From positions 92,197-156,196 of the forward strand of contig CAZVJB010000002.1 of the NCBI GenBank assembly GCA_964627625.1: a stretch of DNA of 64,000 bases. Direction: 5' to 3'. Below, piece by piece: positions 2,882-62,485 of this stretch. Position 1 is the first letter of the stretch. Every line of letters begins with the position of its first letter. This stretch comes from an uncultured Halobacteriales archaeon (GTDB lineage Archaea; Thermoplasmatota; E2; JACPAO01; JAHFTW01). The notes beneath the pieces were generated by a model, which was not told the DNA's origin, searched no databases, and worked only from the letters and a program-made list of their open reading frames with translations. The translations under genes were made by a program, and so were the position numbers.

Positions 2882-3688
2882 TCACGCGGTCGCCGAACCG
2901 GTCTCGTCTCGATCGGCATGGGAAGACGTGGTCGGGGAGGACGTGGTCGGCAAGTCGATGTTGCTCCTCGTTTGCTGACGCAGCAGGCGGCGGACGAAGT
3001 CATGATCAGATAGTCCGTAGTGGCAACCCAAGCCATCGCGCTTCCTGTGCAGGTCGCCCGACTCCAACATGCGCTTCAAGTGATAGCCAAGTGTCGAGTC
3101 CGCACAGCCTAGGCTACGGCGCAGCGCGGTCCGGTTCATGGGGCCCGCAAGCAGGAGTTGGCCGATGCGTCGGGGCACGAGCCGCGAGAATCGGGCCAGG
3201 CCCGGGCGCATCTCGGCGTCATGGTTGCTGGTGACGAAGAAGCGCTTGTAGCGGCCGTCGGACAATTCCACGACCAGGCCGTCGCGTTCGAGCCGATCGA
3301 GGTGGTGACGCAATTGTCCCGCGGATGTGAGGCGTGCCGCTCGGGCAAGGCCGCGAAAGTGCACGCCCGGTTGTTCCTGCACGATGGTAAACAGTGTTCG
3401 GCCGATGTCGCGGGCTGCGGCCTCAGGTGGAGAATCGGTCTCGAAGCCACGTGGCGCAGGCAGGTCAGGTTGTCGCCCCGGGCCGTTTGGGACCATTGCG
3501 TCACCGCGTGGCTCGTTGGGAGCGGCCGCAGCCTGGAGCATGGCAGGTCCCGCAAACCATTGGCCGGTGGCCGGCGCAACGGGCCCCGGTGGGTCATCGG
3601 GGTGCGGGGGTGGAACCGGCCTGTCGGGTTCTGGGGCAGGATTTGGATCCGGTCGCGGCTCTGGGGCTTCGCTCGGGTTCGCGACCAT
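2882..3688 (-). CDS. Tandem winged-helix (wHTH) transcription regulator with a Pro-rich disordered N-terminus
   Basis: Two wHTH-like units (…TLFTIVQEQPGVHFRGLARAARLTSAGQLRHHLDRLERDGLVVEL… and …LLLAGPMNRTALRRSLGCADSTLGYHLKRMLESGDL…). It is paralogous to 59444-59998, 61928-62485 and the C-terminus of 51098-53488. Confidence 0.6.
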   Translation of the reverse strand: MVANPSEAPEPRPDPNPAPEPDRPVPPPHPDDPPGPVAPATGQWFAGPAMLQAAAAPNEPRGDAMVPNGPGRQPDLPAPRGFETDSPPEAAARDIGRTLFTIVQEQPGVHFRGLARAARLTSAGQLRHHLDRLERDGLVVELSDGRYKRFFVTSNHDAEMRPGLARFSRLVPRRIGQLLLAGPMNRTALRRSLGCADSTLGYHLKRMLESGDLHRKRDGLGCHYGLSDHDFVRRLLRQQTRSNIDLPTTSSPTTSSHADRDETGSATA

Positions 3689-27899: not shown

Positions 27900-28320
27900 C
27901 GATGGCGGCCCGGCGTAAGGCGGGGACTAGGTTGAGGGAATAGGCACCCCTACCAGGCGCAAGTCTACATGGCGCGACCGAACCCCTGTCGTGGCGCTCG
28001 GGGTCCGCTGCAAGCCCTCGTCTTACGGTGAAACCTCGTCCCCCGAGGTCGGCGGTGGCGGGAAACTTTCCGGAAGGGAAGCCGAACGCCTTCGCTGCGG
28101 GGACCGGGTCAGGCCCGGAAGGGAGCAGCCTTACCGCAAACGACCGACGTTTGGGGGGGCGCGGGGTGGAGAACAACGAGGGATTCATCTTGCACGGGTC
28201 TCGGGTTGCCGCGGCAGGAGTGTCCCCGCCCGCTAAAGGCTACGGCCTTCTGGCCGTGATTCCACGGACGAAGGATTCCGCTGATTCTGACGTAGGGCCG
28301 GGGCGGGGGCCGTCATCGAA
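27900..28320 (+). ncRNA. ffs: Signal recognition particle RNA (7S / SRP RNA); ends approximate
   Basis: The window contains GGUCAGGCCCGGAAGGGAGCAGCC (28101-28127), which matches the universally conserved SRP RNA helix-8/domain IV consensus GGUCAGGUCCGGAAGGAAGCAGCC. The ~400-nt region is GC-rich, highly self-complementary and has no credible ORF. The 5' and 3' ends could not be fixed by eye. Confidence 0.55.
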
Positions 28321-33464: not shown

Positions 33465-33636
33465 GATCCAGTCACCAGGATGTTTCGCGCGAGACCCATC
33501 CCCTACATAACGAATATGGGCGCGGCGGCCTTGCACCGTGGCCTGCGTCGCCCGGTCAGCAATCGGGCTACAATGGTTAAGTGCCTCGAGGTCATTACTG
33601 GGGATGGCCTGCGGGCCGTGGAGGTCATGTGGACCC

Positions 33637-35883
33637 ATGCTGATGCGCCGGTCGTCGCTCTTCGCGGGATTGGTGGTACTCGTCGCTTGCGCCCTCGCGA
33701 CACCGGCCTGGGGGGCCATCGACTCCGCAACGTACGGCACGAAGGTCATGACCTGGGAGGCCCTTTGCAATCCCGCGGCGCCCGAGGTCGCGCCGGGGAC
33801 CTTGCCGGCGTGCCCCGGCCCGTCCATCACCATCACGCTGCCCACGGACCTCATGGCGACGACGGCCTTCTGGGAAGGCAACGCCGCCTATGTGCTGGGC
33901 GGCGTGAACGAGTGGCACTCACCGACGGTGCCGACCGAGACCGATGCGGTGCTCAAGTTCACGCGCGGCATGCAGGTCGGCGTGTTGCCCGTCTACGAGC
34001 CCAACCAGCCGGGCGGCCTCGTCGTCGGTGCCGGCGCCCTGCCGGCCCCAGCCGCCAACCAGGCATTGGCCTACGACGCCACGGGCAAGGTTGCCTACCT
34101 CTTCGGCTCCAGCAACGAGGGCCGCTTGTCGGATGCGATTTACAGCTACTCGCCCCTCACACAGACGTCGGCGACGATGCCCTGCGTCCTTCCCCGCAAG
34201 TTCGACCTCATGGCCGGCGCGTGGGCGAGCGGCAAGGCGTACCTCTTCGGCGGCCGCTATCTGGAGGGCAACGGCGACACGGTGGCCTTCAGCCTGCACA
34301 ACTCCAACGAAATCTACCGCTTCGACCCCGCGACCTGCGCCTTCAATCTGAACCCGTACCCACTCGCGACCGTCGCGGGCGCGAGCGGGACTGCCGAGGG
34401 CAAGCGCTTCGGGATGACGGCCGTCACCGTTGGCGCGGAAGTCTTCCTCTTCGGCGGCACGTTCATGGACGATGTCGCCGGGACGACGCCCGCCGAGGTC
34501 GGGGGAGGCGCCTACGCGTACAATCCCGTGTGCCCGACTGGGGCGCCGCCCTACGCGCCATGCCCGGTAGCCCAGTGCTCCATCCTGAAGTTTATTCCAG
34601 CCACGGGCGCGACCACCGTCCTGCTCTCCTCCTCCGCGCTCTGCGGCCCCCTCGCTGCCGTGTACGATGGGCAGTTCATCTACGCCTTCACAGGGAGCTC
34701 GGCCTACCGGTACAATCCTGCCACGCCCAGCTCGCCCCCCGTCTACGTCGCCGCGCTGGCCACCGGTGTCGGGCGCGGCGGCCTGTCCGCGACGTCCGCG
34801 GTGAGCACCGGCTGCAGTGCGTACATCTTCGGTGGCCTAATCCGGCCCCCGCCGTTCCTGCCGGACCCCGCCGCCCTCATGGGCGACCCCTACGACCGGG
34901 CGCTCATCTCCGACAAGATCCAGTGGTTCGGCAAGTGCCGCCCGCAAGCCGTCATCGCGCCCACCTACGGCTACACATGCCCCAACTACCCCATCTGGTT
35001 CGACGCCAAGTTATCCACCGTGGGCGAGGGCGACATCATGCAGGCGGCGTGGACGTTCGGCGACGGCACGTCCATCCCGTACTCGTGGTGGTTCGCGCAT
35101 CCCCCTGACTGGTACCCGCAGGCCGCGTTCGTGTCCCACACCTACACGAAGGAAGGCAACTTCCCAGTCACGCTCTCGATTCGCGACGCCAACGGCCTCG
35201 TCTCCACCGCGTCCGTCGTCGTCCCGGTGCGCCAGGACCCCGTGTGCACGACCTTCGGCGGGACACCCCATGTCGCCCGGGCACTGCGATATCCTGAGGG
35301 CGTGGCACTTGACAGCGACCTCGACGGCATCCCCGACGGCGGCGACAACTGCCCCGGCATCGCCAACAACGCGCAGGGCGACCGCGACGGCAACGGCGTC
35401 GGCGACGACTGCGACGAGACTGCGATGCAAGGCGACGGAGGCCCGCCCGCCGCGCCTTCGTCCACTCCTGCTGCGCCTGATCGTGACCGCGACGGCGTGC
35501 CCGACGCCGCGGACAACTGCGCCGCCGTCCCCAACCACGACCAGGCGGACGCCGACATCGACCGCAACGGCGACGTCTGCGACGCCGACATCGATGGCGA
35601 CGGCGTCTCCAACGCCGGCCCGCCGGGCGCGTTCCTCGACAACTGCCCATGGTACGCCAACGTGGATCAGGCGGACCAGGACCTCGATGGCGCCGGCGAC
35701 GAGTGCTCGTTCGGCGCGATGCCAGCCCTCGCTCGGGATGCCGGCGAAGTGCACGCAAGCGCGGCACGCACGTCTGGGTCGCCACCTTGGCTTGCGGCCT
35801 TCACGGTGGCCGCCGTTGCCACGCTCGGCTGCGCGGCGCTGCTTGGCCTCGCGCTGCGCCGACCCGGTGGCCGCCGGCCATAG
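33637..35883 (+). CDS. Type-I membrane surface protein: signal peptide, Kelch-like propeller, PKD domain, thrombospondin type-3 (TSP3) repeats, C-terminal TM anchor
   Basis: Signal MLMRRSSLFAGLVVLVACALATPAWG. Kelch-like blades (AYVLGG…, AYLFGS…, AYLFGGRY…, VFLFGGTF…, YIFGG…). PKD …WTFGDGTS…SHTYTKEGNFPVTLSIRDANG…. TSP3 DxDxDGxxDxxDNC repeats (DSDLDGIPDGGDNCPGIANNAQGDRDGNGVGDDCD; DRDRDGVPDAADNCAAVPNHDQADADIDRNGDVCDADIDGDGV). TM LAAFTVAAVATLGCAALLGLAL followed by RRPGGRRP. Confidence 0.75.
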   Translation: MLMRRSSLFAGLVVLVACALATPAWGAIDSATYGTKVMTWEALCNPAAPEVAPGTLPACPGPSITITLPTDLMATTAFWEGNAAYVLGGVNEWHSPTVPTETDAVLKFTRGMQVGVLPVYEPNQPGGLVVGAGALPAPAANQALAYDATGKVAYLFGSSNEGRLSDAIYSYSPLTQTSATMPCVLPRKFDLMAGAWASGKAYLFGGRYLEGNGDTVAFSLHNSNEIYRFDPATCAFNLNPYPLATVAGASGTAEGKRFGMTAVTVGAEVFLFGGTFMDDVAGTTPAEVGGGAYAYNPVCPTGAPPYAPCPVAQCSILKFIPATGATTVLLSSSALCGPLAAVYDGQFIYAFTGSSAYRYNPATPSSPPVYVAALATGVGRGGLSATSAVSTGCSAYIFGGLIRPPPFLPDPAALMGDPYDRALISDKIQWFGKCRPQAVIAPTYGYTCPNYPIWFDAKLSTVGEGDIMQAAWTFGDGTSIPYSWWFAHPPDWYPQAAFVSHTYTKEGNFPVTLSIRDANGLVSTASVVVPVRQDPVCTTFGGTPHVARALRYPEGVALDSDLDGIPDGGDNCPGIANNAQGDRDGNGVGDDCDETAMQGDGGPPAAPSSTPAAPDRDRDGVPDAADNCAAVPNHDQADADIDRNGDVCDADIDGDGVSNAGPPGAFLDNCPWYANVDQADQDLDGAGDECSFGAMPALARDAGEVHASAARTSGSPPWLAAFTVAAVATLGCAALLGLALRRPGGRRP

Positions 35884-36002
35884 CCGCGTCACGAAATCCG
35901 CCGGCGCCCCGACTTGCACTCAGGAGACGGGCCAGAAACCGTAAATATGCCCGACGGTGCTGTCAGAAGTGGCACAGCGTGCCTCTGGAGTCGCGTCGTC
36001 AC

Positions 36003-38447
36003 ATGTCTTTCCGTATCGTGTCCCTATGTCTTGCCGTCGCCCTGCTTGGGGCCCTCGTGTCGCCGGCGGAGTCCGCGGTAATCCCGGGAATCGACATAAT
36101 CGATTCGTGCACGTATTCCAATTCGGGTTGCCCGACACCGCCACTGCCTATCCTTCCGGCGCCGCCCATCGGGAACGGGTTCCCAATCAACGACGTGTGG
36201 AGCCCGTATTGGAACACCGCCTCGGCTTATGGTCCGCAGCTTGTCACGCATACCGACTTGTGCAATACGGCCCCCGAGCCAATCACCGTCATCGTGGGCC
36301 AGAACCTGGTCACATGCGTCAACGCACAAGGCCCGCCGAGCCCGGGGTGTCCCTGCCCGCCGACACCGGAGCCCATCCCGATTCCGCTACCCTCCCAATT
36401 GTGGTACTCCACGGCCTTCTGGGATGGTAGCGACGGCTACATTCTCGGCGGGGCCATCGACCTTGACGGCTCCGAAACGAGCGCGGTGACGAAGTTCAGT
36501 CGCGGCATGCCGCAGGGCCCGCTCTACGATCCTCCGTACGAGCCCATCCAGCCGGGGGGGGTATTGCAGTCGGCAGGCTCGCTGCCAACTGCGCGCTCGA
36601 ACCAAGGGCTTGCGTACGATACAGCTGGCAACATGGCATACCTGTTTGCCGGCACGAACGGCGGCGAGCTGGACAACAGCATCTACAGCTACACGCCCGT
36701 GACCCAGAGCTCCGGCACGGCGCCGTGCGTCCTGCCCCGCAACTTCGACAAGATGGCGGGCGCGTGGGCGGAGGGCGCCGCCTACGCGTTCGGAGGGCGC
36801 TACCTCGAGGGCAACGGCGACACGGTCGCCTTCAGCCTGCATACCTCCAATGAAATCTACAAGTTCGACCCGTCCACCTGCACGGTCACACTGAATCCGT
36901 TCAATCTCCCCCCGAACGGGGCCGCCAATCCCTACACGCCGGACGGCAAGCGGTTCGGCATGACGGCCGTGACGGTCGGCACCGAGGTCTTCCTGTTTGG
37001 CGGGTTCTTCATGGATGATGTCGCCGGGACCACGCCGACGGAGGTCAACAGCGGTGCCTACGCGTACAACCCGTTGTGCGGCGTTGCCCCACCACAGCCA
37101 CCGTACCTTCCGTGCACGGTGCCACAGTGCTCCATTCTCAAGTTCACGCCGGCCACGGGCATCGTGACGACCATCAATCCGTCGTTTGCGAGCTTGTGCG
37201 GGAACATGTCCGCCGTCTACGACGGCAAGTACATTTTCCTGTTCAAGGGCGGCAGCGCTTACCGGTACGACCCTGCCACGCCAACCATCATGCCCACCTT
37301 TGCAGCCAGTCTGCCGGTCGGCATTGGCCAACCGCTCAAGGCCAACGACTACAGTCGGGGCGGCACCGAAGGGACCTCGGCCATCGCGACGGGATGCAGC
37401 GCCTACATTTTCGGGGGCAAGGTGGATTTCGCCGTTCCTCCTGTCACGACTGCACCCGATGGCCCCATCTCGGACAAGATTACCTGGTTCGGCAAGTGCC
37501 GGCCAACCGCGGTCTTGGCGCCGACCTACGGCTACACCTGCCCGTTCTACCCTATCTGGTTTGACGCCCGCTTCTCGATTGTGGCGGAAGGCGACTTCAA
37601 GAAGGTCACGTGGAACTGGGGCGATGGCACACCGTCGCAGACGGGCTGGTATTTCCCGCACTCCCCTGACTGGTACGACCAGTACGCCTTCCTGCCGCAC
37701 ACCTTCACGAACGAAGGCAATTTCGTGGTCACGATGACAGTGGAGGACTTCAACGGCTTCAAGTCGAGCGCACAGACAACGGTCCCGATTCGAACCGATG
37801 CCGTCTGCACGATGTATGGCGGCACACCGCACACGGGGGCGACGACAATCACGTATCCGGACTCCGAGTCCTTGGACAGCGATCTTGACGGCATCCCCGA
37901 CGTTTCGGACAACTGTGCGGGCGTTGCGAACAACGACCAAGTTGACGAAGACGCCGATGGCGTGGGCGACGAATGCACGACCGCGCCTGTCGACGAGGAA
38001 AAACCGGTGATTCAGCCAGCCCCACCCGAGGTCGTCATGCCCGACAAGGATCGCGACGGCATTCCGGACGTTCGCGATAACTGCAGGGCTTTGCCCAATC
38101 ATGACCAGTCTGACTTGGACACCGATTTGGCTGGCGACGTCTGCGACGTGGACATCGATGGCGATGGCGTTTCGAATTCAGGCCCGCCCGGCGCGTTCTT
38201 GGACAATTGTCCGTGGTACGCCAACCCGGACCAGTTGGACTCGAACGGCGACGGCGCCGGCGACGAATGCGCCTTCATGGAGGGCGCGTTTGCCAAGCCG
38301 AAGGCGGCTGGCCCGGCGGCGGCAGGCGATGTCGCGAAGCCGTCTTCGCTGCCGTGGGCCGCCGCAACCGGGATGGCCATCGCGGCCGCGCTCGGCACAG
38401 TCTTCCTACTCATGGTCCTGCTACGCCGGACCCGGCGCCCCGAGTAG
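36003..38447 (+). CDS. Paralogous type-I membrane Kelch/PKD/TSP3 surface protein (tandem duplicate of 33637-35883)
   Basis: Same architecture and many identical motifs (AYLFAGTNGGELDNSIYSYTPVTQSSGTAPCVLPRNFDKMAGAWA…, PKD WNWGDGTPS…, TSP3 DSDLDGIPDVSDNCAGVANNDQVDEDADGVGDEC, DKDRDGIPDVRDNCRALPNHDQSDLDTDLAGDVCDVDIDGDGV). TM MAIAAALGTVFLLMVLL followed by RRTRRPE. ATG at 36003. Confidence 0.75.
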   Translation: MSFRIVSLCLAVALLGALVSPAESAVIPGIDIIDSCTYSNSGCPTPPLPILPAPPIGNGFPINDVWSPYWNTASAYGPQLVTHTDLCNTAPEPITVIVGQNLVTCVNAQGPPSPGCPCPPTPEPIPIPLPSQLWYSTAFWDGSDGYILGGAIDLDGSETSAVTKFSRGMPQGPLYDPPYEPIQPGGVLQSAGSLPTARSNQGLAYDTAGNMAYLFAGTNGGELDNSIYSYTPVTQSSGTAPCVLPRNFDKMAGAWAEGAAYAFGGRYLEGNGDTVAFSLHTSNEIYKFDPSTCTVTLNPFNLPPNGAANPYTPDGKRFGMTAVTVGTEVFLFGGFFMDDVAGTTPTEVNSGAYAYNPLCGVAPPQPPYLPCTVPQCSILKFTPATGIVTTINPSFASLCGNMSAVYDGKYIFLFKGGSAYRYDPATPTIMPTFAASLPVGIGQPLKANDYSRGGTEGTSAIATGCSAYIFGGKVDFAVPPVTTAPDGPISDKITWFGKCRPTAVLAPTYGYTCPFYPIWFDARFSIVAEGDFKKVTWNWGDGTPSQTGWYFPHSPDWYDQYAFLPHTFTNEGNFVVTMTVEDFNGFKSSAQTTVPIRTDAVCTMYGGTPHTGATTITYPDSESLDSDLDGIPDVSDNCAGVANNDQVDEDADGVGDECTTAPVDEEKPVIQPAPPEVVMPDKDRDGIPDVRDNCRALPNHDQSDLDTDLAGDVCDVDIDGDGVSNSGPPGAFLDNCPWYANPDQLDSNGDGAGDECAFMEGAFAKPKAAGPAAAGDVAKPSSLPWAAATGMAIAAALGTVFLLMVLLRRTRRPE

Positions 38448-38572
38448 CGGCGTCAGCCATGCGCAAGCCTGCCGCAAGGACAGCCGGCGCTGCCACCGGC
38501 GCAAGCCTTAGTTTTTGGCCACGGATGTCCGTTTCTTGGGGGCAGGCCCGGTCAAGGCGTCCCATAAAGGCT

Positions 38573-48879: not shown

Positions 48880-49090
48880 CATCGGCGAATCCGACCGGTC
48901 TGACCTCGCACAGGGCTTCGCCCGTGCATCAGTAGCCACGGTCGGATTCGACCCAGCGGCCGGGCAAGCCCAGCCGCTGGGATTCCTCGGCTTCGCCATC
49001 GGCGAACCCGCCCGGGTCTGGACTGGCCGCGGGCGCTGCGCGACCCGACGGAGTAGCCCCGGTCGGATTCGACCGCCCGGCCTTGCAGGC
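48880..49090. repeat. Two degenerate ~105-nt tandem repeats in the MMPL / beta-helix intergenic region
   Basis: atcggcgaa(t/c)ccg(a/c)ccgg…gagtagcc(a/c)cggtcggattcgacc occurs twice. Each copy ends in a GGTCG-GATT-CGACC hairpin. Confidence 0.5.
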
Positions 49091-49151
49091 ATGCTCGACG
49101 GCAGGTTGGCGGCCGCGCCGTTTTCAGGGGCGGTGGAACCATTTGTCCCTT

Positions 49152-50774
49152 TCATCCGTGATGACTATGATGGCATGCGACCTGTTGGCCAAAGGCCGCG
49201 GCCGGCGGGGTGTTGTGTGCAGGACACGTCTCACCCTCCACTGGATTCCTTGTCAGCCACGGGTCAACGATGGCTTCCCCGTAAATGCTGCTGCCCGGTC
49301 CATCGTCCGACCCCCACCAATTCCAGCGCGCATCGACGGGAATCGTTGCAGCCGTGGGATTCCAATTGAATTGTGCCTGGTCAGTATTTACTAGGCCGTA
49401 GCGCGCATTGTCGACGAAGGTGTTGTTCCGGAAGACCGGCTTCTCTTGGCCGACCACGAAGGCGCCATCGACGAGGTTTCCCTCAAACGAGTTGCCCGAC
49501 ACCTCGGAGGTTCCAAGCGGACGACTGGAAAGTTGGCGCAGGATTGCGCCCTCCTCGTTGCCAACGAAGCGATTGTTGCGTATTCGAATCGGGTCTCCTT
49601 GTTGGTACAGACCGAACGAGGTCTGGCCTACAATCTCGTTTCCTTCAATCAAGACGGGAGCGTCCGTCGTCCAGATGCCGGCCGTGTTGTTCGCGATGAG
49701 GTTACCAAGGATATCGGCCTTGACGCCAGGCCCGCAATAGGGGTCGCCGCCATCGACCATGATTGCCATGCCAAATGGAGCGGCCCCGTTGTTCCCAACG
49801 ATTTGGTTTTCCTGGATGAGTACGTACGTTTCGGGACCACAGGCAAACCAACCTGCGGCGTTGTCCTCAACGATGTTCGCGTGAAACGTGGCCTGGCTTC
49901 CAGCCCAGGCCAGGAATGCAAAGTAGTTGCCGGACAGCGTGTTCCCTTCGAAGGCGGCCTGCGAATTGTGGAGTTTGGCGCCGAACGTGAAGCCGTGCAA
50001 AACGTTGCTCGCGAAGCTAAGTGCCTGGCTGTCGCGGACGATAACTGCCGCATCATCATCTATCGGAATCACGGATTTCTGCAGCGGACAGTTGACAAGG
50101 CCATCGCACGTGGTGTCCCGTAGGTCACGCAACATCGGGGAACGACTGGCGTTGACGAGCTCGTCACGAACCGCGTAACCCAAACGCGACGGAGGAGAAA
50201 CGACATTAGAGGTAAGGTCTATGGCGGTAGACGTCTCGACGACGACACCATAGGGATACCCATCCACACTGTTCGACTCGAAGTGCACGTTGGCGGCGTT
50301 CCACGTTCGCAGCCCAACCCATCCGGGGGGCATGACGAATGGGGCGCCGGGCTCGAGCCAATTGTAGGAATCGTCCGCTGTGGTGCCGACGTGGGTGCAT
50401 ATCCCCCAGGTGGGGAAGTTACAGATCACGAAGGGCGGCAAGTAAGCAGGCTGGAGCAACTCGTTGCCGCGCACCACGACATGGGCGTCCGTGTTGGCGA
50501 TGAATATGCCGGCGGCTGCACCCCCCACGATGGCCCAGTTCTGGATGATGTAGGGGTCAGTGGGCGTCCCAGTTCCGGACAGGACGCCGTTGGCCGCATT
50601 GAAATCCATGTTGGACAGGATTGTGATGGGAGCGCGCGGCGTCTTGGAAGGCACATCGGGCAAGATGGGTGCTTCATCGTCCGGGAGCGGAAGCTGCCCA
50701 ACGGCGGGCCCGGAGACGACGGTGGCCATGATTGCCAAGCCTGCCAGGATAGATGCGCGAATTTGAATCGTCAT
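49152..50774 (-). CDS. Secreted right-handed parallel beta-helix repeat protein (NosD / pectate-lyase-like fold)
   Basis: Signal MTIQIRASILAGLAIMATVVSGPAVG. Repeated N/G/V-rich ~22-aa PbH1-like turns (…NIVEDNAAGW…, …NQIVGNNGAAPFGMAIMV…, …GNLIANNTAGIWT…, …GNEIVGQTSFGLY…). Confidence 0.7.
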   Translation of the reverse strand: MTIQIRASILAGLAIMATVVSGPAVGQLPLPDDEAPILPDVPSKTPRAPITILSNMDFNAANGVLSGTGTPTDPYIIQNWAIVGGAAAGIFIANTDAHVVVRGNELLQPAYLPPFVICNFPTWGICTHVGTTADDSYNWLEPGAPFVMPPGWVGLRTWNAANVHFESNSVDGYPYGVVVETSTAIDLTSNVVSPPSRLGYAVRDELVNASRSPMLRDLRDTTCDGLVNCPLQKSVIPIDDDAAVIVRDSQALSFASNVLHGFTFGAKLHNSQAAFEGNTLSGNYFAFLAWAGSQATFHANIVEDNAAGWFACGPETYVLIQENQIVGNNGAAPFGMAIMVDGGDPYCGPGVKADILGNLIANNTAGIWTTDAPVLIEGNEIVGQTSFGLYQQGDPIRIRNNRFVGNEEGAILRQLSSRPLGTSEVSGNSFEGNLVDGAFVVGQEKPVFRNNTFVDNARYGLVNTDQAQFNWNPTAATIPVDARWNWWGSDDGPGSSIYGEAIVDPWLTRNPVEGETCPAHNTPPAAAFGQQVACHHSHHG

Positions 50775-50880
50775 TACGGTGGACTCCTGTTGTACGCCAT
50801 GGGCCGACGGGAAATCCGGCGACTTGGCGGGCAGGTGTCATCGCCGCTGTTTCGAGTTAAGGATTTGCCGGCGTCCTTGA

Positions 50881-50894
50881 GGTGATTTCATAAC
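50881..50894. promoter_or_regulatory. GGTGATTTCATAAC motif about 200 nt upstream of the Kelch/TSP3/wHTH gene; near-identical to a motif at 57649
   Basis: Seen directly: 50881 GGTGATTTCATAAC and 57649 CGTGATTTTTCATAAAC. Confidence 0.35.
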
Positions 50895-51097
50895 TTCCAG
50901 ACAGATGTGCTGGAGTGAATGTATTACCCAATGACTATTAGAACTCGAATCTGGTGTTTTGAGTGCCGGCGGGTCCGGGGTGGTCGCATCGGGGAATTGC
51001 ATGCATCGTGCCAGAGAGGCCGATGCTGGGCAGGGCGTTCCATGGCTACACCATCAACGGGCGCGCTAAGGGCGGTTTCCGGAGACTCCTGTTGACC

Positions 51098-53488
51098 ATG
51101 CGTCTGGGGATGGGAATCGCGATTGCCGGGCTCCTTGGAACCCTTCTAATCCCAATCGGCGAGGCAGCAATCTCATCGGATGCCCGCGTATCAACCGACG
51201 GCTACCTCCCAAGCGGGCGTCATGGGGCGGGCGCGGTGTGGGATTCCGTGCGGCATGTCGTCTACATATTCGGCGGCTTCGACGAGAAGCTCCAAACGGA
51301 CACTGCCGAAATCCTGGAGTTTGACCCGGCATCCTCGGCACGCAACGCGACACTAATCGGCCATCTTCCAGGACCCATGTCGGGCCTTGTCGCCGTCTGG
51401 ACGGGCGAGGTTGCGTACATCGTCGGAGGCGACTCGGATGCAATCATGCAATTCGATCCCGCCACCGCCACGCTCACGGTCCTATCGGTCCGCTTACCCC
51501 ATACCGTGGACTCCCCCGCCGCGGTCTGGACGGGCCGAGCGATGTATCTTTTCGGCGGCACCTCCGATTCCTCCACGCCCGTCGGCACCATCATGCGCTT
51601 CGAGCCCGACGAGATGACTGCCAGCACCCTTGAGGAGACTCTACCTCGCGCTGGGCACTACGCAGCCGTCTGGTCCGGCGATGGCACCGCATACATCCTC
51701 GGCGGAGGCGGAAACGAGATTTACGCATTTACTCCCAACCACGCGCCCTCCCTGGTTCAGCTGAATGTCACCTTGCCGCTGGCCATCGATGCAGCCGGCG
51801 CCGTTTGGGACGGTACAGCCGTGCTCGTCTTCGGTGGTCGGGAGGCTGACGGCAGCCCCAATGGAGGGACGGCTCTCGACACAGTAATACGGTTTGATCC
51901 ACAAGCGCCTCCGTCACAGAGTGTGTCGTATTGGCCGAACCTGCCCGTTCCTGGCACCGAACTTCGAGGCGTCCCCCGCCCCTGCGACAGCGCGTTTCTT
52001 TTGGGTGGCAAATGGCAGACCGCCTCTCTCTATGACGCCATATCGAGGTACGGCCCGCCGCAGTCGACTCCCGGGGATTGCCTCGGGCCCAAGAAATCAG
52101 ACCCGCAATCAGACCCGCAATCCGCGTCCGCAAAGGTATTGCAAGCGGATTTCACGTGGCATTCCAAACCGGTCAAGTGCGGTCCTCGCTCCGTATCGTT
52201 TACTGACACATCAACCCCCGGCGATGCCCCAATCGTCTCATGGGGGTGGGACTTTGGTGACGGCTCGCAATCCGCCGAACAAAACCCCCAACACACCTAC
52301 GCCAATTCGGGAACCTACACCGTCCGCGAAACCGTCACGGATTCCGCGGGAAGCACATCGACGTACGAGACGACGGTCTACGCGCCTGCAAACAAGGAAT
52401 GCATTGAGAAAACTTCACCCTCGTCGACGCAGCATGGGGCGCGGCCGCCGCGCGATGGCAACGGCGAAGCTTCGGGAGACGCCGATGGGGACGGTATCTC
52501 AGATTCGGATGATGATTGCCCCTTCACTGCCGACCCCGAACAGTTAGACGCTGATGGCGATGGCATCGGAGACGTATGCGACGACGACGCGGACAACGAC
52601 GGCATCCGCAACGTGGTCGACAATTGTCCAGTGGTTCCCAACCGGGCCCAAACCGATTTTGATGCCGACGGCTTGGGGGATGTCTGCGACCCCGACGCTG
52701 ATGGCGATACCGTCGCTAATGAAGTGGATAATTGCCTCCAGATGGCCAACGCGGACCAACTGGACAGCGATGCGAACGGTATCGGCGATTCCTGTGATTT
52801 CAAGCAGTCCAACCTATCAAACGAAGCAAGCCAACCTCGCCCAATTTCGAGGGCACGGGGGGTAGCGTCTGTCGGTCGCGAAACGTCCGCGAACGGAGCC
52901 ATTCCCCTGGCAATCGGCATCGCCATCCTCTTGGCCATTATCGTTGCCGCCACCTGTTGGCGAATCGCGCAAGCCAACGCCAGGGGGCCAACAGTCTCCA
53001 AGACGAAGACGCCTCCCGTGGTGTTGCTCTTTAGCCGCATTGGCGACGCCGACCTTCTCAAGCACCCAATTCGCAAACACCTCGTCCAAATCATCCATGA
53101 AAAGCCAGGCATCACGTTCATCGAACTGGTTGCGGCCTCGGGCAAGGGCCGCGGCACAATCGAGCACCACTTGGCGACCCTACAGGCCGGCAGAATCATT
53201 CAAGCTGAACGATCCGGTCGATTCCTGTGTTACTATGCGCGGCCATTGAAGCCGCACGACGCCGAGCGAACCGTGGCGCTACGGTCGGCGTTGGCGCAAG
53301 CCGTGGCTCGTCTGGCCATCCGGCGTCCTGGGACGACGATGTACGAAGCATCCCGCCAACTCGGCGCGGACTACACGGCCATCAAGTACCACGCACGGCG
53401 CCTGGCCGCGGCGGGAATCATCTCGGTAACGCCCGACAATCGCCTGCACGGCGGAGCATGGCACATTCACAACGACACCCGAACGTAG
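51098..53488 (+). CDS. Membrane-spanning fusion: extracellular Kelch propeller, PKD and TSP3 repeats; one TM helix; cytoplasmic tandem winged-helix DNA-binding domains
   Basis: Signal MRLGMGIAIAGLLGTLLIPIGEAA. Kelch-like blades (VYIFGGFD…, AYIVGGDSD…, MYLFGGTSD…, AYILGGGGN…, VLVFGGREADG…). PKD WGWDFGDGSQS…HTYANSGTYTVRETVTD. TSP3 DADGDGISDSDDDCPFTADPEQLDADGDGIGDVCDDDADNDGIRNVVDNCPVVPNRAQTDFDADGLGDVCDPDADGDTVANEVDNC…. TM IPLAIGIAILLAIIVAATCW. Then …HPIRKHLVQIIHEKPGITFIELVAASGKGRGTIEHHLATLQAGRII… and …TMYEASRQLGADYTAIKYHARRLAAAGIISV…, the two wHTH units shared with 59444-59998. The start may be the upstream MLGRAF at 51023. Confidence 0.75.
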   Translation: MRLGMGIAIAGLLGTLLIPIGEAAISSDARVSTDGYLPSGRHGAGAVWDSVRHVVYIFGGFDEKLQTDTAEILEFDPASSARNATLIGHLPGPMSGLVAVWTGEVAYIVGGDSDAIMQFDPATATLTVLSVRLPHTVDSPAAVWTGRAMYLFGGTSDSSTPVGTIMRFEPDEMTASTLEETLPRAGHYAAVWSGDGTAYILGGGGNEIYAFTPNHAPSLVQLNVTLPLAIDAAGAVWDGTAVLVFGGREADGSPNGGTALDTVIRFDPQAPPSQSVSYWPNLPVPGTELRGVPRPCDSAFLLGGKWQTASLYDAISRYGPPQSTPGDCLGPKKSDPQSDPQSASAKVLQADFTWHSKPVKCGPRSVSFTDTSTPGDAPIVSWGWDFGDGSQSAEQNPQHTYANSGTYTVRETVTDSAGSTSTYETTVYAPANKECIEKTSPSSTQHGARPPRDGNGEASGDADGDGISDSDDDCPFTADPEQLDADGDGIGDVCDDDADNDGIRNVVDNCPVVPNRAQTDFDADGLGDVCDPDADGDTVANEVDNCLQMANADQLDSDANGIGDSCDFKQSNLSNEASQPRPISRARGVASVGRETSANGAIPLAIGIAILLAIIVAATCWRIAQANARGPTVSKTKTPPVVLLFSRIGDADLLKHPIRKHLVQIIHEKPGITFIELVAASGKGRGTIEHHLATLQAGRIIQAERSGRFLCYYARPLKPHDAERTVALRSALAQAVARLAIRRPGTTMYEASRQLGADYTAIKYHARRLAAAGIISVTPDNRLHGGAWHIHNDTRT

Positions 53489-53527
53489 TACCCAATCGCC
53501 TTTAGATACCCCTCCCGGTGGAGTATT

Positions 53528-56500
53528 TTGGTTGGCGTACGCCGACCGGTGTTCATCGTGGGAAACCCAACGCAATCGTCGCCAGCCTACACGCAATACT
53601 CGCTCGCCGTCGTCGCGGCCTTCGTGGGCGTCGCTGCCATCGCGCTTGTCCTGTCGCACAACGCCTCGGCCGGCGGGACCGGGTACCAGATTGCAACGGA
53701 TTTGACAAACGATCACACCGACAGCATGCAGAACGCCGAGCTGATTCGTCTCGGCGCGTCGTCAGACGCAACAAACATTTACTTCTGGCTCAAAGTCGGT
53801 GCCGACTCACCCACTTATGACCCAACGCCCTCCGGCCCCAAAGATTTGATGCTATCCGTGGACATGGTCACGCCAGCGAATGTGCCGCAATATGTCAGGG
53901 AAATGTATACGATCTGGGGCTCATGGTTCCAGACCTATACCGGCTTGGCAGTCGGCAGTAGCTGGGAGTACGGGAATAGTAATCAATACCAAAACACCCA
54001 AGTCAGCTGGGTCTGCAACGAAGCGAAATTCACGATTGCTCGCAACCAGTTCACGGGCAGCCCGCCAGCAGATGGCACCGTCTTCACGCGCCTGATGGCA
54101 ACGGCCCAACCAGGCTTCACAACGCCCGCCGTCGTGCTAGACACCATGGGCAGCAGGCCACCCCCCGCACCCCAACCCGCACCTCCCCCCCGGAACCGGC
54201 ACGTGGGAGGTCGGGCAGAACGGCCAGATGTGGCAGAATGCGCCCGTGATAGGCACCGCCACTGCAATCGGAGACAACATGGTCCGAATCACTTGGACTG
54301 CCACGGACAATGGGGCGCAGCCAACGACCGTGTACAGGATTTATCGCAGCGTAGCCGGCGGCGCCTTCTCGCTGTTTACGACGGTGGGCGCGGCAGCCAC
54401 GTCCTACGACGACGTGAACCTGGCCTCAGGCACCTCGTATGCGTACAAGGTCGCGGCCGTCAATTGCCCACAACTGCCCGCACAGGCGTCGGCCCCGCCA
54501 GCAGGCGAGCCCGCCTACGTGGGTGGGGAGAGCCTGCGCAGCGCCGCCGTGTCCGTCACCCCGGACTTCAATCCGATGGCCCCGACAAGTTTTGCCGTTG
54601 GTGAGCCCACAGCAACAACGCTGACACTAACGTGGACCGCAGCCAGCGCGGATTGCCCGGCCGCCACATGCACGCCAGCCGGAACTGGCGCCAGCGGAGT
54701 GCAGGGCTACGCCATGTACCGCGGCGCCAGCGGAGCCGAAACGTTCGTCGCCAACCTGCCCAGCAGCTCCGCCTGCAGCACGACGCCCTGCACCTACACG
54801 GACATCGACCTAACCCTCGGCGCGACCTACTGCTACTACCTCAAGGCCTACGACGGCTACGCTAGCGGGCCGAATACGAGTCCCGCCACATCCGAATCGT
54901 GCGGCGTTCCAGCAACTGCCCCAGCCGCCGTTACCGACACGTTCGTCGTGGACGAAGATATATTGTTCTCCAGTTCCGCTTGCGCCGCTGGCATGCCAGC
55001 CGCGACGGGCGGACCCTACAAAGGCGTCCTATGCAACGACCAGGACATGGCCAACGACGCAATCGAAGGCATCCTCATCACAAGCCCGGCCCAAACAAGT
55101 CCCGGCGGCTCATTTGCATGGGACGCGGACAACAAAGGCGGCTTTACGTACAGGGCTAAAACGGACTACTGCGGTGGCACCGGAGACAGCTTCCAGTACC
55201 AACTCAAGGACGTAACCACCAACACTCTGCTGAATACGGTCACCGTCCAACTCAACATCGCCTGCACCCCGGTTGCCGTAGCGGATCTATTTGCGGCCAC
55301 CATCAATACGGAGTTTTCGTCGCCGCCATGCCCGGCCAACACGCCCTCCGCGACAGGCGGCACCTACAAGGGTGTTCTGTGCAATGACCAAGATACCGCC
55401 AACCACGCGATTCTGGCCCTCCTGGTATCCTCTCCGGTAAACACGAGTCCTGGCGGTTCATTCGCGTGGAACGCCGACAACAAGGGCGGCTTTACGTACC
55501 AAGCCGCAACCGACTACTGCGGCGTTGCCGGAGACAGTTTCCAGTACCGATTGAAGGACGTAACCGCGAACGCCTTCCTGAATACCGTCACCGTGCAAAT
55601 CGACATCAGCTGCACCCCCAACTTGCCACCAGTTGCCGCCTGCAGCATCGTAACGGCGGCACCCTACTGGCCAGACGAAGTCGTGGCTTTCAGCTCCACG
55701 GGTTCATCTGACTCTGATGGCACAATCACTGCTTGGGCCTGGACGTTCACGGGTGGCTCGTCGCCGGACACGACCATCGCGTCCCCGACGGCCAGTTGGT
55801 CCTCGTCGGGCCCGTTCGCGGTCACGCTAACCGTGACGGACGACGACGATGCACCGAGTGCACCGGCATCATGCGGCATCACGATCACGAATACCGCCCC
55901 GACGGGGAATCCGAATGAGTACGTCGCCATCAAGGATGGCTTGTTGGACACCCTCAATCAAGGCCGTCCCAGCGTCTTGGCCAATGACGTGGATACGGAA
56001 GGCAACCTCAACGCCGTGCAGTTCCCCCTCTGCGCGCCGCTGCCTGCCGGGACGGGAACCATTGACGACTTCACGTACGTGGGGCCGCAGGCGGGCCACT
56101 TCGTCTACACTCCCCCTGCTGGCTTCGTTGGGGACACATCGTTTGGCTACAAGCCGAAGGACGCCTTGGGCCTGGTTGGCGCGTCCTGCGTCACGGTGAA
56201 TATCCACGTGCAAGTCAACCGCTCCCCCGTATCGGCGTTCTCCGCAGACCGGTCCACGACGCGGGTTGGCGAGCCCGTCGTCTTCGGTGACGCTTCCAGC
56301 GATCCCGACGAGGGCGATGCCGTCGTGGCTTGGGCCTGGAGCTTCGGCGACGGCGGATCCGGCACGACGTCGAGTCCCATCCACATCTTTGGCACCACCG
56401 GCTCCTTCCAGGCATGCTTGACGGCCACGGACACGTGGGGCAAGATTGGGCCGAAGGCCTGCCGCACCATCACCGTGATTGCGGCGACTGCAGGCACATC

Positions 56501-57308
56501 CGCACCACCCGCGCCCCCGAGCCAGCCGCCGAGCGACCCGGCCGACCCGGATGCATCCAAGCCGCCGCTCGGCGTGGACGCGGGAGCTGACCAAACCGTA
56601 ACCGAATCGGCGATCACCAAGCTGCAAGCAACCGTCACGGGCGGGTCGCAAACAGTGGCGTGGGTGCAAACGTATGGGCCGCGCGTGGACTTGACGCAAA
56701 CAGGCACGTCGGCGTCGTTCGTCGCCCCCGCTTTAACGGGATCGCGCATCGTCTTGTACTTCGAACTTCACGCCCAAGACGGCGAACGCGTCGGCGCGGA
56801 TGGCGTCATGATTGAAGTCGAATCCAATGAGCCAACGCCGGCCGCACAAGTCGCGGGCGACGCAACGGTGGCGCCTGGCGCCGTGGCCATGCTGGATGGT
56901 ACGTCATCCTCTGGCGGAAACGGCAACTCCTTGACGTACAAGTGGACGCAATGGGAAGGCCCAGCCGTCACGCTCGTCGGTGCCGACACGCCGATGGCCA
57001 CCTTCACCGCGCCCGACGAAGCGGCCACGCTGCGCTTCGCCCTGGAAGTAAGTGACGGCCACTCATCGAGCCTCGCCATCCAGACCATCGTGGTCGATGC
57101 CTCGGCGGCACTCGGCGGCGAACCGGAGCCGCTTCCATCCGCCTCCGTCCCGACCGTGGATCCCGATGGCTCGCCGGCCACGGCGACGCAGGCGCCAAGC
57201 GGATCCAACGTGGCCGCTATCGCCGCCGCGGCCGTAGTCGCGTTGCTAGGCGTCGGGGGGGCTTTCATCGGCCTGCGCCATCTCCGGGCAAGGCCGGAAC
57301 GTACCTAA
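53528..57308 (+). pseudogene. Giant (~1260 aa) surface protein (signal/TM, FN3, tandem Ig-like, PKD and VCBS-like domains, C-terminal TM anchor), split by a frameshift in a C7 homopolymer near 54185-54191
   Basis: Track ORFs 53528-54604 and 54228-57308 overlap. Upstream of 54228 the second frame reads …LPPGTGTWEVGQNGQMWQNAP… with no Met. Removing one C from the ccccccc run fuses …PQPAPPP to GTGTWEVGQ…. Downstream are FN3-like domains (…TTVYRIYRS…SYAYKVAAVN), two ~100-aa tandem repeats (GGSFAW(D/N)ADNKGGFTY…CG…GDSFQY(Q/R)LKDVT…), PKD motifs (WAWTFTGG…, WAWSFGDGGSG…), and C-terminal AAIAAAAVVALLGVGGAFIGL followed by RHLRARPERT. Confidence 0.55.
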
Positions 57309-57974: not shown

Positions 57975-59447
57975 ATGAAGCCCCTGCCCTTGCTCTTGGC
58001 CGTTCTGCTTTTCATGGCTGCAAGTGCAGCCGCCGCAAGCGATTTCACGTTCGATTCTGCCGCAGGGCACGGCCCGCTCCAATTGACACCGCAGGGTTTC
58101 GCGCTGCTGCATACGACGGCCAGCGTCGATTGGACCCTGACGGCCACTTCGATGCGAATCAAGGTCGTGGATGACCGCGAAGACAACGCCATCCCGGACC
58201 CAGCCAATCCGGACGACAGCCTGGTTTCGGTGTTCAACCGGACGACGACGTACCACGATTTCGCGGCGGCGACGCTGCATTGGGTTTCCCTTTCGAATCC
58301 GGTCTCAATCATCCAGGGTCCCGGCATCCTTGCCGAAAACGTCAGCGGTCAACTTGCCCTGACCACGGTGTCGCCAAGCAGCATCGAACAGTCGCACTAC
58401 GTTATGGCCACTCCAGTCGGTGCTCCCGAACTGCAATACGATGTGCTCGTACCCGCGTCGCTGCGAGTCAAAGCGACCGCCGTGGCGGACATCCTTGGCA
58501 ACGTCACTCTGTACTCGTGGAGCAACGACATCCAAGTGCGGCATTCCGGCGGAGCCTTCGAGCTGCGCACCGGCAAGTACACCGACATGCCGGTCACGCA
58601 AGGAAGCCTGCGATCGCGGCACTACGTGCACGCGTTTCTTGAACTGCGCACCGCCAGGGCCAACCTCGCCATTCCGGCGGCGGCCTTCTACGCCGAAGGC
58701 CTGCAAGTCGAAAGCCATGGTATCCTGCAATTCTCCAACCTGACCGGAGAACTCCCCGGCCCTACGGGTTTGGCGACGGCCACAGGGGGAATCGTGACCG
58801 CCTCGGCGGGGACGTTTGCCCTGTCACCGACTGGAACCGGCATCGGCGGCACTGTACTCATTGCACCTGAAGCCGTCGCTGGCACAACTGCGCGGCTTCC
58901 AGGCACCGCGCTTCCTGGCGGGGTATGGCTTGCGTTGAGCGGCATGCTGTTTGTTGGCGTGGTCGCCGCGCCAAGCGTCCATGGTCGCCGGGTCCGCCAA
59001 CGGGAGGCCGCCACATGGCTTGGGTTTAGGGACGACCGGGCAACAGCGTATAGCAATTGGGCCGCACGCGCCGACAACCAGGGCTGGAACCACGCCGCAG
59101 CCCTGCTGTTCTGGCGGGCTACTCGAAACAGCCCCACGAGTCCGGAGTTGCGATGCGAGTACGGCGTCCTCCTGCGGCAAAGCGGCCGTCCCAAACGGGC
59201 CTTGCGCCAGCACGTCCTCGTCGGGGAAGTCCTGGCGCGTTCGTTTGATCCAGGCTGCGGCGCCCTCAATGCCTACAGCGCTAGCCTGTGTTGCGCCGCC
59301 CTTGGGAAGGATGGGGCGGCGCTTGAGTGGCTGCAAGCCGCAATCGAGGCTGATCCGGGTTTCACTGAAACGGCCCTTAAGGAGCCCCGACTGCGACGCC
59401 TCAGAGCACACCCCGATTATCCCGCCATCGTCGGGGCCATCGCATGA
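57975..59447 (+). CDS. Type-I membrane receptor-like protein: signal peptide, ~310-aa ectodomain, one TM, cytoplasmic helical (TPR-like) domain
   Basis: Signal MKPLPLLLAVLLFMAASAAAAS. TM VWLALSGMLFVGVVAAP followed by HGRRVRQRE. Cytoplasmic …YSNWAARADNQGWNHAAALLFWRATRNSP…LQAAIEADPGF… is helical-repeat-like. Confidence 0.6.
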   Translation: MKPLPLLLAVLLFMAASAAAASDFTFDSAAGHGPLQLTPQGFALLHTTASVDWTLTATSMRIKVVDDREDNAIPDPANPDDSLVSVFNRTTTYHDFAAATLHWVSLSNPVSIIQGPGILAENVSGQLALTTVSPSSIEQSHYVMATPVGAPELQYDVLVPASLRVKATAVADILGNVTLYSWSNDIQVRHSGGAFELRTGKYTDMPVTQGSLRSRHYVHAFLELRTARANLAIPAAAFYAEGLQVESHGILQFSNLTGELPGPTGLATATGGIVTASAGTFALSPTGTGIGGTVLIAPEAVAGTTARLPGTALPGGVWLALSGMLFVGVVAAPSVHGRRVRQREAATWLGFRDDRATAYSNWAARADNQGWNHAAALLFWRATRNSPTSPELRCEYGVLLRQSGRPKRALRQHVLVGEVLARSFDPGCGALNAYSASLCCAALGKDGAALEWLQAAIEADPGFTETALKEPRLRRLRAHPDYPAIVGAIA

Positions 59448-59998
59448 CGTCGCGGTCGCGTGACGGCGATGAGGCGCGCGACTTGTTTGCAGTTCCAACC
59501 CGGCCCCGCGCCGCGCACAGAATCGTTGGCGTCGATGGCCTTACTGAAATCCAGCGGCAGGCCTATGATTTCGTCGTGCTCAATCCCGGCGTGACCATCC
59601 AGGAAACGGCCGTTCACATGCGAAGCAGCCACTCCACGGCCACGTACCACTTGTTGGCCTTGACGCGCCTCGGACTCGTGGAGGCCGTCCGGGCGGGACG
59701 CCAGCTTCGCCACTTTCCCTTGCCCCGCGGCTACTCACGTGAACTCTACCTGAAAGTCTTGAACCGCGATCCCAAGCGGGCCGCCTTGGTGCATTTCCTG
59801 CGCGACGCGCCCGTGGCGGGCATGACCATCAACCACATTGCCGGGAAAACGGGGCTCCCTTTCGGCTTCGTGAAGCGCACGCTTGAGCAATTGGAACGAA
59901 TGCACTTCGTCCATCTACGGCGACGCCACTACCGGTACCGCGTCGAGGTGACGCGCGAATTGCTTGCCGGTCGCGCCGACGACCTTTTTCCCGCGTAG
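59444..59998 (+). CDS. Tandem wHTH transcription regulator, overlapping the stop of the receptor-like gene (ATGA)
   Basis: …EIQRQAYDFVVLNPGVTIQETAVHMRSSHSTATYHLLALTRLGLVEAV… and …RAALVHFLRDAPVAGMTINHIAGKTGLPFGFVKRTLEQLERMHFVHL…. Same family as 2882-3688, 61928-62485 and the tail of 51098-53488. Confidence 0.65.
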   Translation: MTSRSRDGDEARDLFAVPTRPRAAHRIVGVDGLTEIQRQAYDFVVLNPGVTIQETAVHMRSSHSTATYHLLALTRLGLVEAVRAGRQLRHFPLPRGYSRELYLKVLNRDPKRAALVHFLRDAPVAGMTINHIAGKTGLPFGFVKRTLEQLERMHFVHLRRRHYRYRVEVTRELLAGRADDLFPA

Positions 59999-61927: not shown

Positions 61928-62485
61928 TCACGCCGATACCTCCGCGGCTAAAACGGCCGCAATCGTGGGAGCGACGTCCCGTACCGACCAGGCCGGGCGA
62001 GGCGTCACGTGGTAGACCACGCGGGGGCCGAAGGTGCGGCGCGTCACTAGGCCGACGGCCGTCAAGCGGCCCAAGGCGTGCTGGGACGATGAACGCGGCA
62101 AAGCAAGCGCATCAAGAACGGCGCTTTGGAAGACCGGCGCAAGCCGCTCCACCACACGCAGCACGCCGTACTGTTTCGGCGTCAGATTAGCCATGGCGGC
62201 CAGTCGGTTTGCAATCTCAGGCGGCGGCCGAGAACCCGCAAAGTGCAACAACCGAACGTCCTGGCGCGCCGTCCAGGCCAAGCCAAACCGCGCAAGCAGC
62301 CGGACATGATGCGCCAAGCAACCGGTCGAAATATTCGTTGCCGCCGCCAAGCGACGAAACCCCAGACCCGGCTGGGCAGCCAACGTGTCCAATATCAATT
62401 GTCGACGCGGATGTGCCGCCACGTTGCCGGCGCGGACGCGTTCCATCAGAACACCGCCCGACCCGGGCAAGCCGGATGCGGGCAA
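61928..62485 (-). CDS. Tandem wHTH transcription regulator (fourth paralogue)
   Basis: …RRQLILDTLAAQPGLGFRRLAAATNISTGCLAHHVRLLARFGLA… and …ANLTPKQYGVLRVVERLAPVFQSAVLDALALPRSSSQHALGRLTAVGLVT…. Confidence 0.6.
   Translation of the reverse strand: MPASGLPGSGGVLMERVRAGNVAAHPRRQLILDTLAAQPGLGFRRLAAATNISTGCLAHHVRLLARFGLAWTARQDVRLLHFAGSRPPPEIANRLAAMANLTPKQYGVLRVVERLAPVFQSAVLDALALPRSSSQHALGRLTAVGLVTRRTFGPRVVYHVTPRPAWSVRDVAPTIAAVLAAEVSA

Follow-up and report, generated by a model that had tools for sequence, protein, structure and literature searches.

Can a protein that displays adhesion-type modules on the outside of an archaeal cell also carry, on the same chain, a module acting on transcription inside it? 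This question is raised by a gene located at 51098..53488 (+) in the stretch of DNA analyzed here, a window of 64,000 nucleotides from a contig of an uncultured archaeon (CAZVJB010000002.1). Its product, 796 amino acids long from the ATG at 51098, joins a Kelch-type propeller, a PKD domain and thrombospondin type-3 (TSP3) repeats to a single transmembrane (TM) helix and to a C-terminal tail of two predicted winged helix-turn-helix (wHTH) units. The reading that we favor, and hold to be reasonably probable, is that of a single-pass type-I transmembrane transcription regulator with a sensing ectodomain; its DNA binding, signal, targets and cleavage-free action are inferred from the sequence.

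The order of the domains, namely signal peptide or anchor, Kelch, PKD, TSP3, one TM helix and tandem wHTH tail, agrees with the initial annotation of this DNA and is confirmed by Pfam and by the finding of exactly two hydrophobic segments in a Kyte-Doolittle scan, at residues 1-27 and 596-628. The tail is the part on which any function in transcription would depend. Unit 1 (53027..53245 (+), residues 644-716) opens with an LFSR...LL.HP.R motif and has a recognition helix reading ...GTIEHHLATL, while that of unit 2 (53252..53455 (+), residues 719-786) reads ...YTAIKYHARRL. Taken as a single sequence, unit 1 is a marginal match to Pfam HTH_24 (22.9 bits for a cut-off of 21.9) and stays below the cut-off of HTH_HVO_0163_N (27.7 bits for 31); unit 2 yields sub-threshold matches only, to HVO_A0114 and MarR_2. 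The target alone is also below the HTH_5 and HTH_20 cut-offs, and reaches 26 bits for a cut-off of 55 with NCBIfam HTH_metalloreg.

A family profile was built from a 20-sequence alignment of such tails and compared with solved PDB structures. Its unit 1 matches 5duk_A (3e-10) as well as 3f6v_A, and its unit 2 matches 3cuo_A (1e-8), 6j05_A (6e-7) and 1uly_A (7e-6); 6j0e_A, 1r22_A and others are among the further ArsR-family structures retrieved. The failure of the wHTH similarity to reach significance, which had been named as a finding that would overturn the annotation, is therefore not observed. The recognition-helix pattern of the family, ...HHL..L..aGLV, aligns with the ...HL..L..aGLV of ArsR proteins, and all 64 homologs scanned match HTH_20 and HTH_24, with HTH_5 or HTH_20 found in 62-64 of the 64. 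The AlphaFold2 model computed on the family alignment (mean predicted local distance difference test score, pLDDT, of 86.7) exhibits the TM helix, a linker of low confidence, and a pair of winged helices, each made of three helices and a wing, with a short helix joining the two units; the pLDDT of unit 2 is above 90. Foldseek searches against the PDB returned the tandem winged-helix proteins RPC62, SelB, ScpB and ESCRT-II together with single ArsR/SmtB repressors. Profile and model together provide significant support for a tail predicted to consist of two ArsR-type winged helices, as had been proposed. To note, the β-wing of unit 1 harbors a highly conserved Cys (target residues ~709-714, nucleotides ~53222-53239), in the context GYTCYFP in the family consensus and RFLCYYA in the target; every sequence of alignments A2 and A4 has it, and it is the sole Cys of the target tail. 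The defence models of PADLOC gave only a weak similarity, to the wHTH part of Csa3 (3e-6), and a link to defence systems was rejected as this similarity is that of a generic wHTH.

The single TM helix, IPLAIGIAILLAIIVAATCW, is found where the initial annotation had placed it, at 52901..52960 (+) (residues 602-621). Hydropathy culminates at 2.71 at residues 602-620, within the hydrophobic segment spanning residues 596-628, and AlphaFold2 models a helix at this position. It is followed by a short basic juxtamembrane linker (52961..53026 (+), residues 622-643) with a pLDDT of 52-57, predicted to be flexible. The tail beyond has an isoelectric point (pI) of 10.9, in line with the family, where the median for the tail is 10.5 and 99% of tails lie above 8. 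Charges flanking the TM helix were counted in the 122 TM-bearing homologs described below: within 15 residues of the helix, Lys and Arg together average 0.74 on the N-terminal side and 2.44 on the C-terminal side, and the latter exceeds the former in 107 of the 122. A wHTH region located outside the cell was rejected, as the positive-inside rule applied across the family puts the tail inside. These data argue strongly for the type-I topology with a cytoplasmic tail that had been advanced from the target sequence. The leader may be cleaved or kept as an anchor; the tail would be cytoplasmic either way.

Is this layout peculiar to one gene? Searches relying on word indexes, with the tail or the 20-sequence profile as query, found no homolog or a single protein. 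An exhaustive HMMER search with residues 590-796 against 1.84 billion cluster representatives (50%-identity clusters) retrieved 3740 clusters at E<=1e-3, of which 504 reach E<=1e-10. Statistics on the layout were computed on the best 150 of these 504 clusters. Most are 650-1500 residues long with the tail match at the extreme C-terminus, and 129 of the 150 have more than 150 residues upstream of the tail. Among these 129 long homologs, a hydrophobic 19-mer indicative of a TM helix lies within 90 residues upstream of the tail in 122, and 110 of the 122 possess an N-terminal hydrophobic segment as well; the search for the same C-terminal tandem wHTH behind a TM helix in relatives, recommended at the outset, is thereby answered. 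The median distance from the end of the TM helix to the LFSR motif is 10 residues, and the chain continues for a median of 5 residues beyond the second wHTH. In the sequences that were read, a hydrophobic leader at the N-terminus precedes an ectodomain that varies, and a single TM helix, a conserved motif ..LFSR...(D/E)..L.HP.R and two wHTH units come next.

The homolog ectodomains are indeed diverse, with TSP_3 in 17 of 64, PKD in 16 of 64, and the remainder devoid of Pfam domains. A conserved tail and a varied ectodomain are as expected for sensors diversifying on a common output. The relatives that bear TSP3, PKD or Kelch modules and exhibit the same join include P0002 and P0003, which combine a PKD-TSP3 ectodomain with a tail 46-47% identical to that of the target, P0007, P0040 and P0068, which have Kelch-type regions, and P0009, deposited as 'Thermoplasmata archaeon'. 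Annotations within the family name one half of the protein only, such as 'thrombospondin type 3 repeat-containing protein', 'microbial collagenase', 'PKD repeat protein' or 'ArsR family regulator'. By these matches, the target is a member of a very large family sharing its layout, and not a one-off. Five related loci were compared, one from GTDB (L002) and four from metagenomes (L003-L006). The latter belong to the commonest subfamily (~700-750 residues; P0012-P0016 and similar), which exhibits a conserved ectodomain of ~550 residues without Pfam match; a motif YWLWPALK...GLFSR, covering the end of the TM helix and the juxtamembrane region, is conserved in its ~740-residue members, and locus L006 contains two such genes within 10 kb.

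The ectodomain of the target starts after a hydrophobic leader, annotated as signal peptide or signal anchor (51098..51169 (+), residues 1-24) from the Kyte-Doolittle scan, with an h-region GIAIAGLLGTLLIPIG followed by EAA/IS, where the cleavage site would be located. The longest open reading frame (ORF) extends over 50963..53488 (+), with alternative starts at GTG 50963 and ATG 51023; gene callers choose the latter, giving an 821-residue form (P0001 on the Logan contig described below). ATG 51023 is preceded by AGAGAGG, and the n-region of the leader in the form including 51023-51097 contains FRRLLL, which is faintly twin-arginine-like. The leaders of homologs P0002, P0007 and P0009, read directly, have no RR pair, and the leader is therefore probably an ordinary Sec-type signal rather than a twin-arginine one.

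The Kelch-type β-propeller (51185..52087 (+), residues ~30-330) displays a repeated xAVW[DTS]G blade motif. Its Pfam matches, at residues 30-285, are with PF24681 (1e-21, 77.8 bits for a cut-off of 50) and Kelch_6 (5e-10, 39.4 bits for a cut-off of 25.3), Kelch_3 and Kelch_1 being above cut-off likewise. The PKD domain (52187..52369 (+), residues 364-424) is identified by PKD_4 (9e-17, 61.3 bits for a cut-off of 27) and PKD (2e-12). It is followed by thrombospondin type-3 repeats (52463..52807 (+), residues 456-570), putatively Ca-binding, which form an acidic stalk adjoining the membrane (pI 4.05, 6 Cys) and match TSP_3 over four stretches (2e-26, 91.6 bits, above the Pfam gathering cut-off of 25). 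The initial count of five or more TSP3 repeats holds for the Ca-binding loops, of which there are five or six (a regular expression D-x-D-x-[DN]-G-x-x-[DN] finds five, at residues 461-564), and not for full repeats, of which there are roughly three. The ectodomain as a whole has a pI of 4.16 and contains 10 Cys.

Counterparts of both halves of the protein are encoded in the same window. For the tail, three soluble tandem-wHTH paralogs bear out the homology with stand-alone regulators that had been noticed initially. The first, of 268 residues (2882..3688 (-)), is detected by tblastn (3.7e-7) and by the hidden Markov model (HMM) of the family tail (5.6e-19), collinearly over both units, and matches HTH_HVO_0163_N (5.6e-15) and HTH_20. 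The second, of 185 residues (61928..62485 (-); tblastn 4e-5, family tail HMM 8.2e-16, also collinear), matches MarR_2 and HTH_HVO_0163_N. In the third, of 184 residues (59444..59998 (+); family tail HMM 3.8e-12), the two units are matched separately. The start of this last gene overlaps the stop of a membrane-protein gene (57975-59447 (+)) whose product exhibits a signal peptide, an ectodomain, a TM helix and a cytoplasmic TPR-like tail, and the pair resembles the fused sensor-wHTH protein "split" over two genes.

For the ectodomain, two tandem Kelch-PKD-TSP3-TM paralogs are found at 33538..38447 (+) by Pfam and by inspection of the sequences; they are 27% identical to the target over its residues 31-570 (E 3e-35) and end in a short basic tail, without wHTH. 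They are part of a trio of surface genes (33538-35883, 35649-38447 and 38207-39883 (+)), the third being of TSP3-TM type, and each of the three products terminates with a C-terminal TM helix and a short Arg-rich tail. The ORFs of the trio overlap at their 5' ends, and their true starts must therefore be further downstream. Because paralogs of the ectodomain and of the tail both occur in the window, the target looks, by sequence, like the organism's ordinary anchored surface protein joined to its tandem-wHTH module.

How might such a protein work? The Kelch propeller, the PKD domain and the Ca-binding TSP3 stalk would be exported to the cell surface, while the one TM helix and the short flexible linker would hold the basic tandem ArsR-type module at the inner face of the membrane. 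The two wHTH units of one chain may act as the halves of an ArsR dimer, and could bind DNA while tethered. The state of the ectodomain, be it occupancy by a ligand or Ca2+, or clustering driven by contact, would alter the presentation or the pairing of the tail, and transcription would change as a result. The targets would probably be surface-protein genes such as the neighbors.

Several points weigh against this proposal. The tether is short (~22 residues here, a median of 10 in the family), requiring the DNA to approach the membrane very closely. Tandem winged helices also occur in ScpB, ESCRT-II and SelB, which bind protein or RNA, and DNA binding by the tail is predicted from likeness of fold and sequence; no convincing operator-like repeat was found in the divergent intergenic region 50775-51100, where only short matches at chance level occur. 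No neighbor gene is conserved across the five related loci, and the regulon can therefore not be deduced from the context. Finally, the Lys and Arg residues flanking the target's own TM helix are close to balance (2 outside, 3 inside), so that its topology is deduced from the family, from the extracellular type of its N-terminal domains and from the absence of a second TM helix.

A broader reading would have a lineage that includes Thermoplasmata expand a family of type-I "receptor-transcription factors" into a major route from surface to transcription, perhaps with a Notch-like release of the tail. Kelch, PKD, TSP3 and the ~550-residue domain would be the interchangeable modules, and adhesion, Ca2+ and contact between cells or with a substrate the inputs. 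No member of this family has been characterized, and the proposal in its full extent is unlikely, if conceivable.

Regulated proteolysis may be envisaged in place of a tethered action: a signal received by the ectodomain would lead to a cut in or near the TM helix, freeing the tandem-wHTH tail of ~18 kDa as a soluble regulator, by analogy with the logic of Notch or SREBP or with the processing of bacterial anti-sigma factors by site-1 and site-2 proteases. Its attraction comes from the resemblance of the freed tail to the soluble tandem-wHTH paralogs of the window and from the very short tether, which makes access to DNA awkward for a membrane-bound protein. The linker is predicted to be flexible and the YWLWPALK...GLFSR motif of the ~740-residue subfamily could be a recognition element, but this motif is not conserved in the TSP3 subgroup to which the target belongs. 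Furthermore, neither a site-2 protease nor a rhomboid nor any other membrane or intramembrane protease was found among the scanned ORFs of the window or beside the homologs in L003-L006, and the survey in PMC10269533 presents membrane-bound regulators as proteins that influence transcription while at the cytoplasmic membrane, that is, tethered. Cleavage seems rather improbable on balance.

A tail without transcriptional function, serving a surface adhesin as docking or adaptor module toward an intracellular partner or as a non-specific nucleoid-membrane tether, is a slightly weaker contender, and we regard it as doubtful. The closest structural matches of the whole tail do include the protein or RNA binders ScpB, ESCRT-II, SelB and RPC62, the same type of ectodomain exists in the window as plain anchored proteins without wHTH tail, and no operator-like repeat was found in 50775-51100. 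At the sequence level, however, both units match DNA-binding HTH families of ArsR, MarR and IclR type and solved ArsR repressors, and not ScpB or ESCRT-II. Family members retain the recognition-helix signature and have uniformly very basic tails, and the nearest relatives of the tail in the window are small soluble proteins comprising little beyond the tandem wHTH, the ordinary form of a transcription factor.

The last alternative is an artefact, with misassembly into a chimera, a frameshift or the loss of a stop codon having merged a surface-protein gene with a regulator gene lying downstream. It is extremely improbable: the paralogous surface proteins of the window do end right after their TM helix, and the next gene downstream is frameshifted at a poly-C run, indicating that errors or pseudogenes occur here, but chimera and lost stop are out because a separately assembled Logan contig (run SRR6868923), possibly from the same sample, displays 0 mismatches over 49045-55205, TM-wHTH junction included, and encodes the identical protein in its 821-residue form, and they are effectively refuted by this contig together with more than 100 homologs from different samples in which ectodomain, TM helix, LFSR motif and tandem wHTH follow each other up to the extreme C-terminus, a layout also found in the TSP3-, PKD- or Kelch-bearing relatives and at one GTDB genome locus. 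The chimeric origin that the initial annotation had named as its own possible refutation is hence set aside.

The tethered regulator that we favor has to be placed among known systems. Proteins combining a DNA-binding domain and a TM region, the transmembrane transcription regulators (TTRs), have been catalogued in bacteria and archaea (Demey, Gumerov, Xing, Zhulin & DiRita 2023, PMC10269533); the initial description of an undescribed one-component architecture was overstated in view of this catalogue and of the 504-cluster family sharing the layout. The census comprises 50,302 TTRs, 1,384 of them archaeal, with a predominance of single-pass proteins, and the types counted include HTH_20 (635), HTH_24 (601) and HTH_5 (165) (PMC10269533). 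The target falls into this class, as a predicted DNA-binding domain and at least one predicted TM region reside in the same polypeptide, and it shares with the census the one-polypeptide design and the single pass; archaeal proteins and the HTH_20, HTH_24 and HTH_5 types are all counted there. The census does not single out the target's family, and the accessible part of its supplement text has no TSP_3 or PKD entries (PMC10269533). TTRs that act from the membrane form an established class, to which archaeal ArnR belongs (PMC10269533, PMC13286277), and provide a precedent for the favored reading. What distinguishes the target is an ectodomain of ~575 residues introduced by a signal peptide, with a predicted DNA-binding module consisting of two ArsR-type units in tandem at the very end of the chain. 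A literature search found no published description of this family.

Bacterial ToxR, CadC and TcpP also have a single TM helix, a cytoplasmic winged helix and an outside sensor, and are thought to bind DNA while tethered. They carry one N-terminal wHTH of OmpR type (Trans_reg_C) and a C-terminal periplasmic domain, whereas the target, of opposite polarity, carries two units of ArsR type. Membership in the ToxR/CadC group was rejected, since Trans_reg_C gives no match and the ArsR-type wHTH units come after the TM helix. ArnR/ArnR1 of Sulfolobus acidocaldarius, likened to the target by description only, is as well an archaeal, membrane-bound, one-component protein with an HTH. ArnR is the sole archaeal entry in the table of characterized TTRs, which also lists TfoS and Rsp (PMC10269533), and its HTH motifs are located in the N-terminal region (PMC13286277). 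The target, in contrast, has them at the C-terminus. The TM segments of ArnR are C-terminal, and ArnR is not known to possess a large ectodomain.

The opposite polarity that had been ascribed to known membrane regulators is correct for ToxR, CadC and ArnR, and does not extend to TfoS, Rsp and the Bacteroides hybrid sensors. The hybrids are mentioned in the text of the census, which reports for Rsp a DNA-binding domain C-terminal to the membrane part (PMC10269533). The succession of outside sensor, membrane and C-terminal DNA-binding domain is common to the target, TfoS (Vibrio), Rsp (Neisseria) and the Bacteroides hybrids. TfoS and the hybrids likewise possess this order, and the three use outputs of AraC or PilR type, usually two TM segments, and kinase- or receiver-like modules. 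According to Pfam, the target has neither an AraC- or PilR-type output nor kinase- or receiver-like modules.

With the ArsR/SmtB family the target has in common the predicted wHTH fold and the recognition-helix pattern, and its best sequence matches among solved structures are found there. The classical ArsR/SmtB repressors are soluble, of small size and homodimeric, and possess sites that sense metals or redox state, whereas the target is a membrane-anchored protein of 796 residues with two units per chain. Notch is a type-I receptor whose ectodomain is made of repeats of extracellular matrix or adhesion type, including Ca-binding ones, and whose C-terminal part acts on transcription. The likeness of the target to Notch or SREBP is an analogy only, without homology.

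In sum, the TTR class is known; what appears new, by sequence, is a large archaeal branch, so far uncharacterized, whose type-I proteins combine ectodomains of adhesion type with an output made of tandem ArsR-type units. It represents hundreds of 50%-identity clusters, known mostly from metagenomes alone. If the tail binds DNA, these proteins would provide archaea with a simple and abundant means of linking events at the cell surface with gene expression, and their "eukaryote-style" adhesion modules on a prokaryotic transcription factor would be a natural analogue of receptor-to-nucleus signaling. Under the same condition, the combination of a variable ectodomain and a conserved output would suit the question of how a transcription factor works when tied to the membrane by ~10-20 residues, which the TTR census poses in general terms (PMC10269533). 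Should DNA binding be absent, what is left would be an adhesin of the cell surface whose cytoplasmic tail is unusual.

A full-length archaeal signal recognition particle RNA (RF01857, 162.6 bits) at 27920-28229 (+) shows that the window is archaeal; FtsZ, UvrB and a DUF7121 protein are encoded as well. A domain scan of the ORFs identified the genes flanking the target. On one side, a NosD/β-helix surface protein is encoded divergently at 49152-50774. Directly downstream, at 53528-57308 (+), lies a large surface protein with fn3, Big_9/cadherin-like and PKD domains, an N-terminal hydrophobic segment, a C-terminal TM helix and a basic tail. It seems to be one large surface protein, split between two frames at the poly-C run 54184-54191, where ...PAPQPAPPP resumes as GTGTWEVGQNGQMWQNAPV...; the Logan contig is identical at this run, and the frameshift may stem from a homopolymer error, or mark a pseudogene or a variable tract.

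Among the related loci, the neighbors in L003-L006, all of the ~740-residue subfamily, are unrelated housekeeping genes (acyl-CoA dehydrogenase, a protein with an SRP54-type GTPase domain, HisA-like, EamA, DUF488), and Rfam gave no match on the related loci. L002 (JAZJZE010000009.1) is the only GTDB species representative matching the narrow pattern; it is deposited as 'MAG: bacterium', a label that may be generic or wrong. Apart from the gene itself, it is not syntenic with the window; the close homolog there, 36% identical to the target over 443 residues, is located directly downstream of a 909-residue TSP3 surface protein. Back in the window, already rich in such proteins, the 1828-residue ORF at 15464-20950 (-) encodes another giant surface-type protein, the only Pfam matches of which are Big_1 Ig-like domains near its C-terminus.

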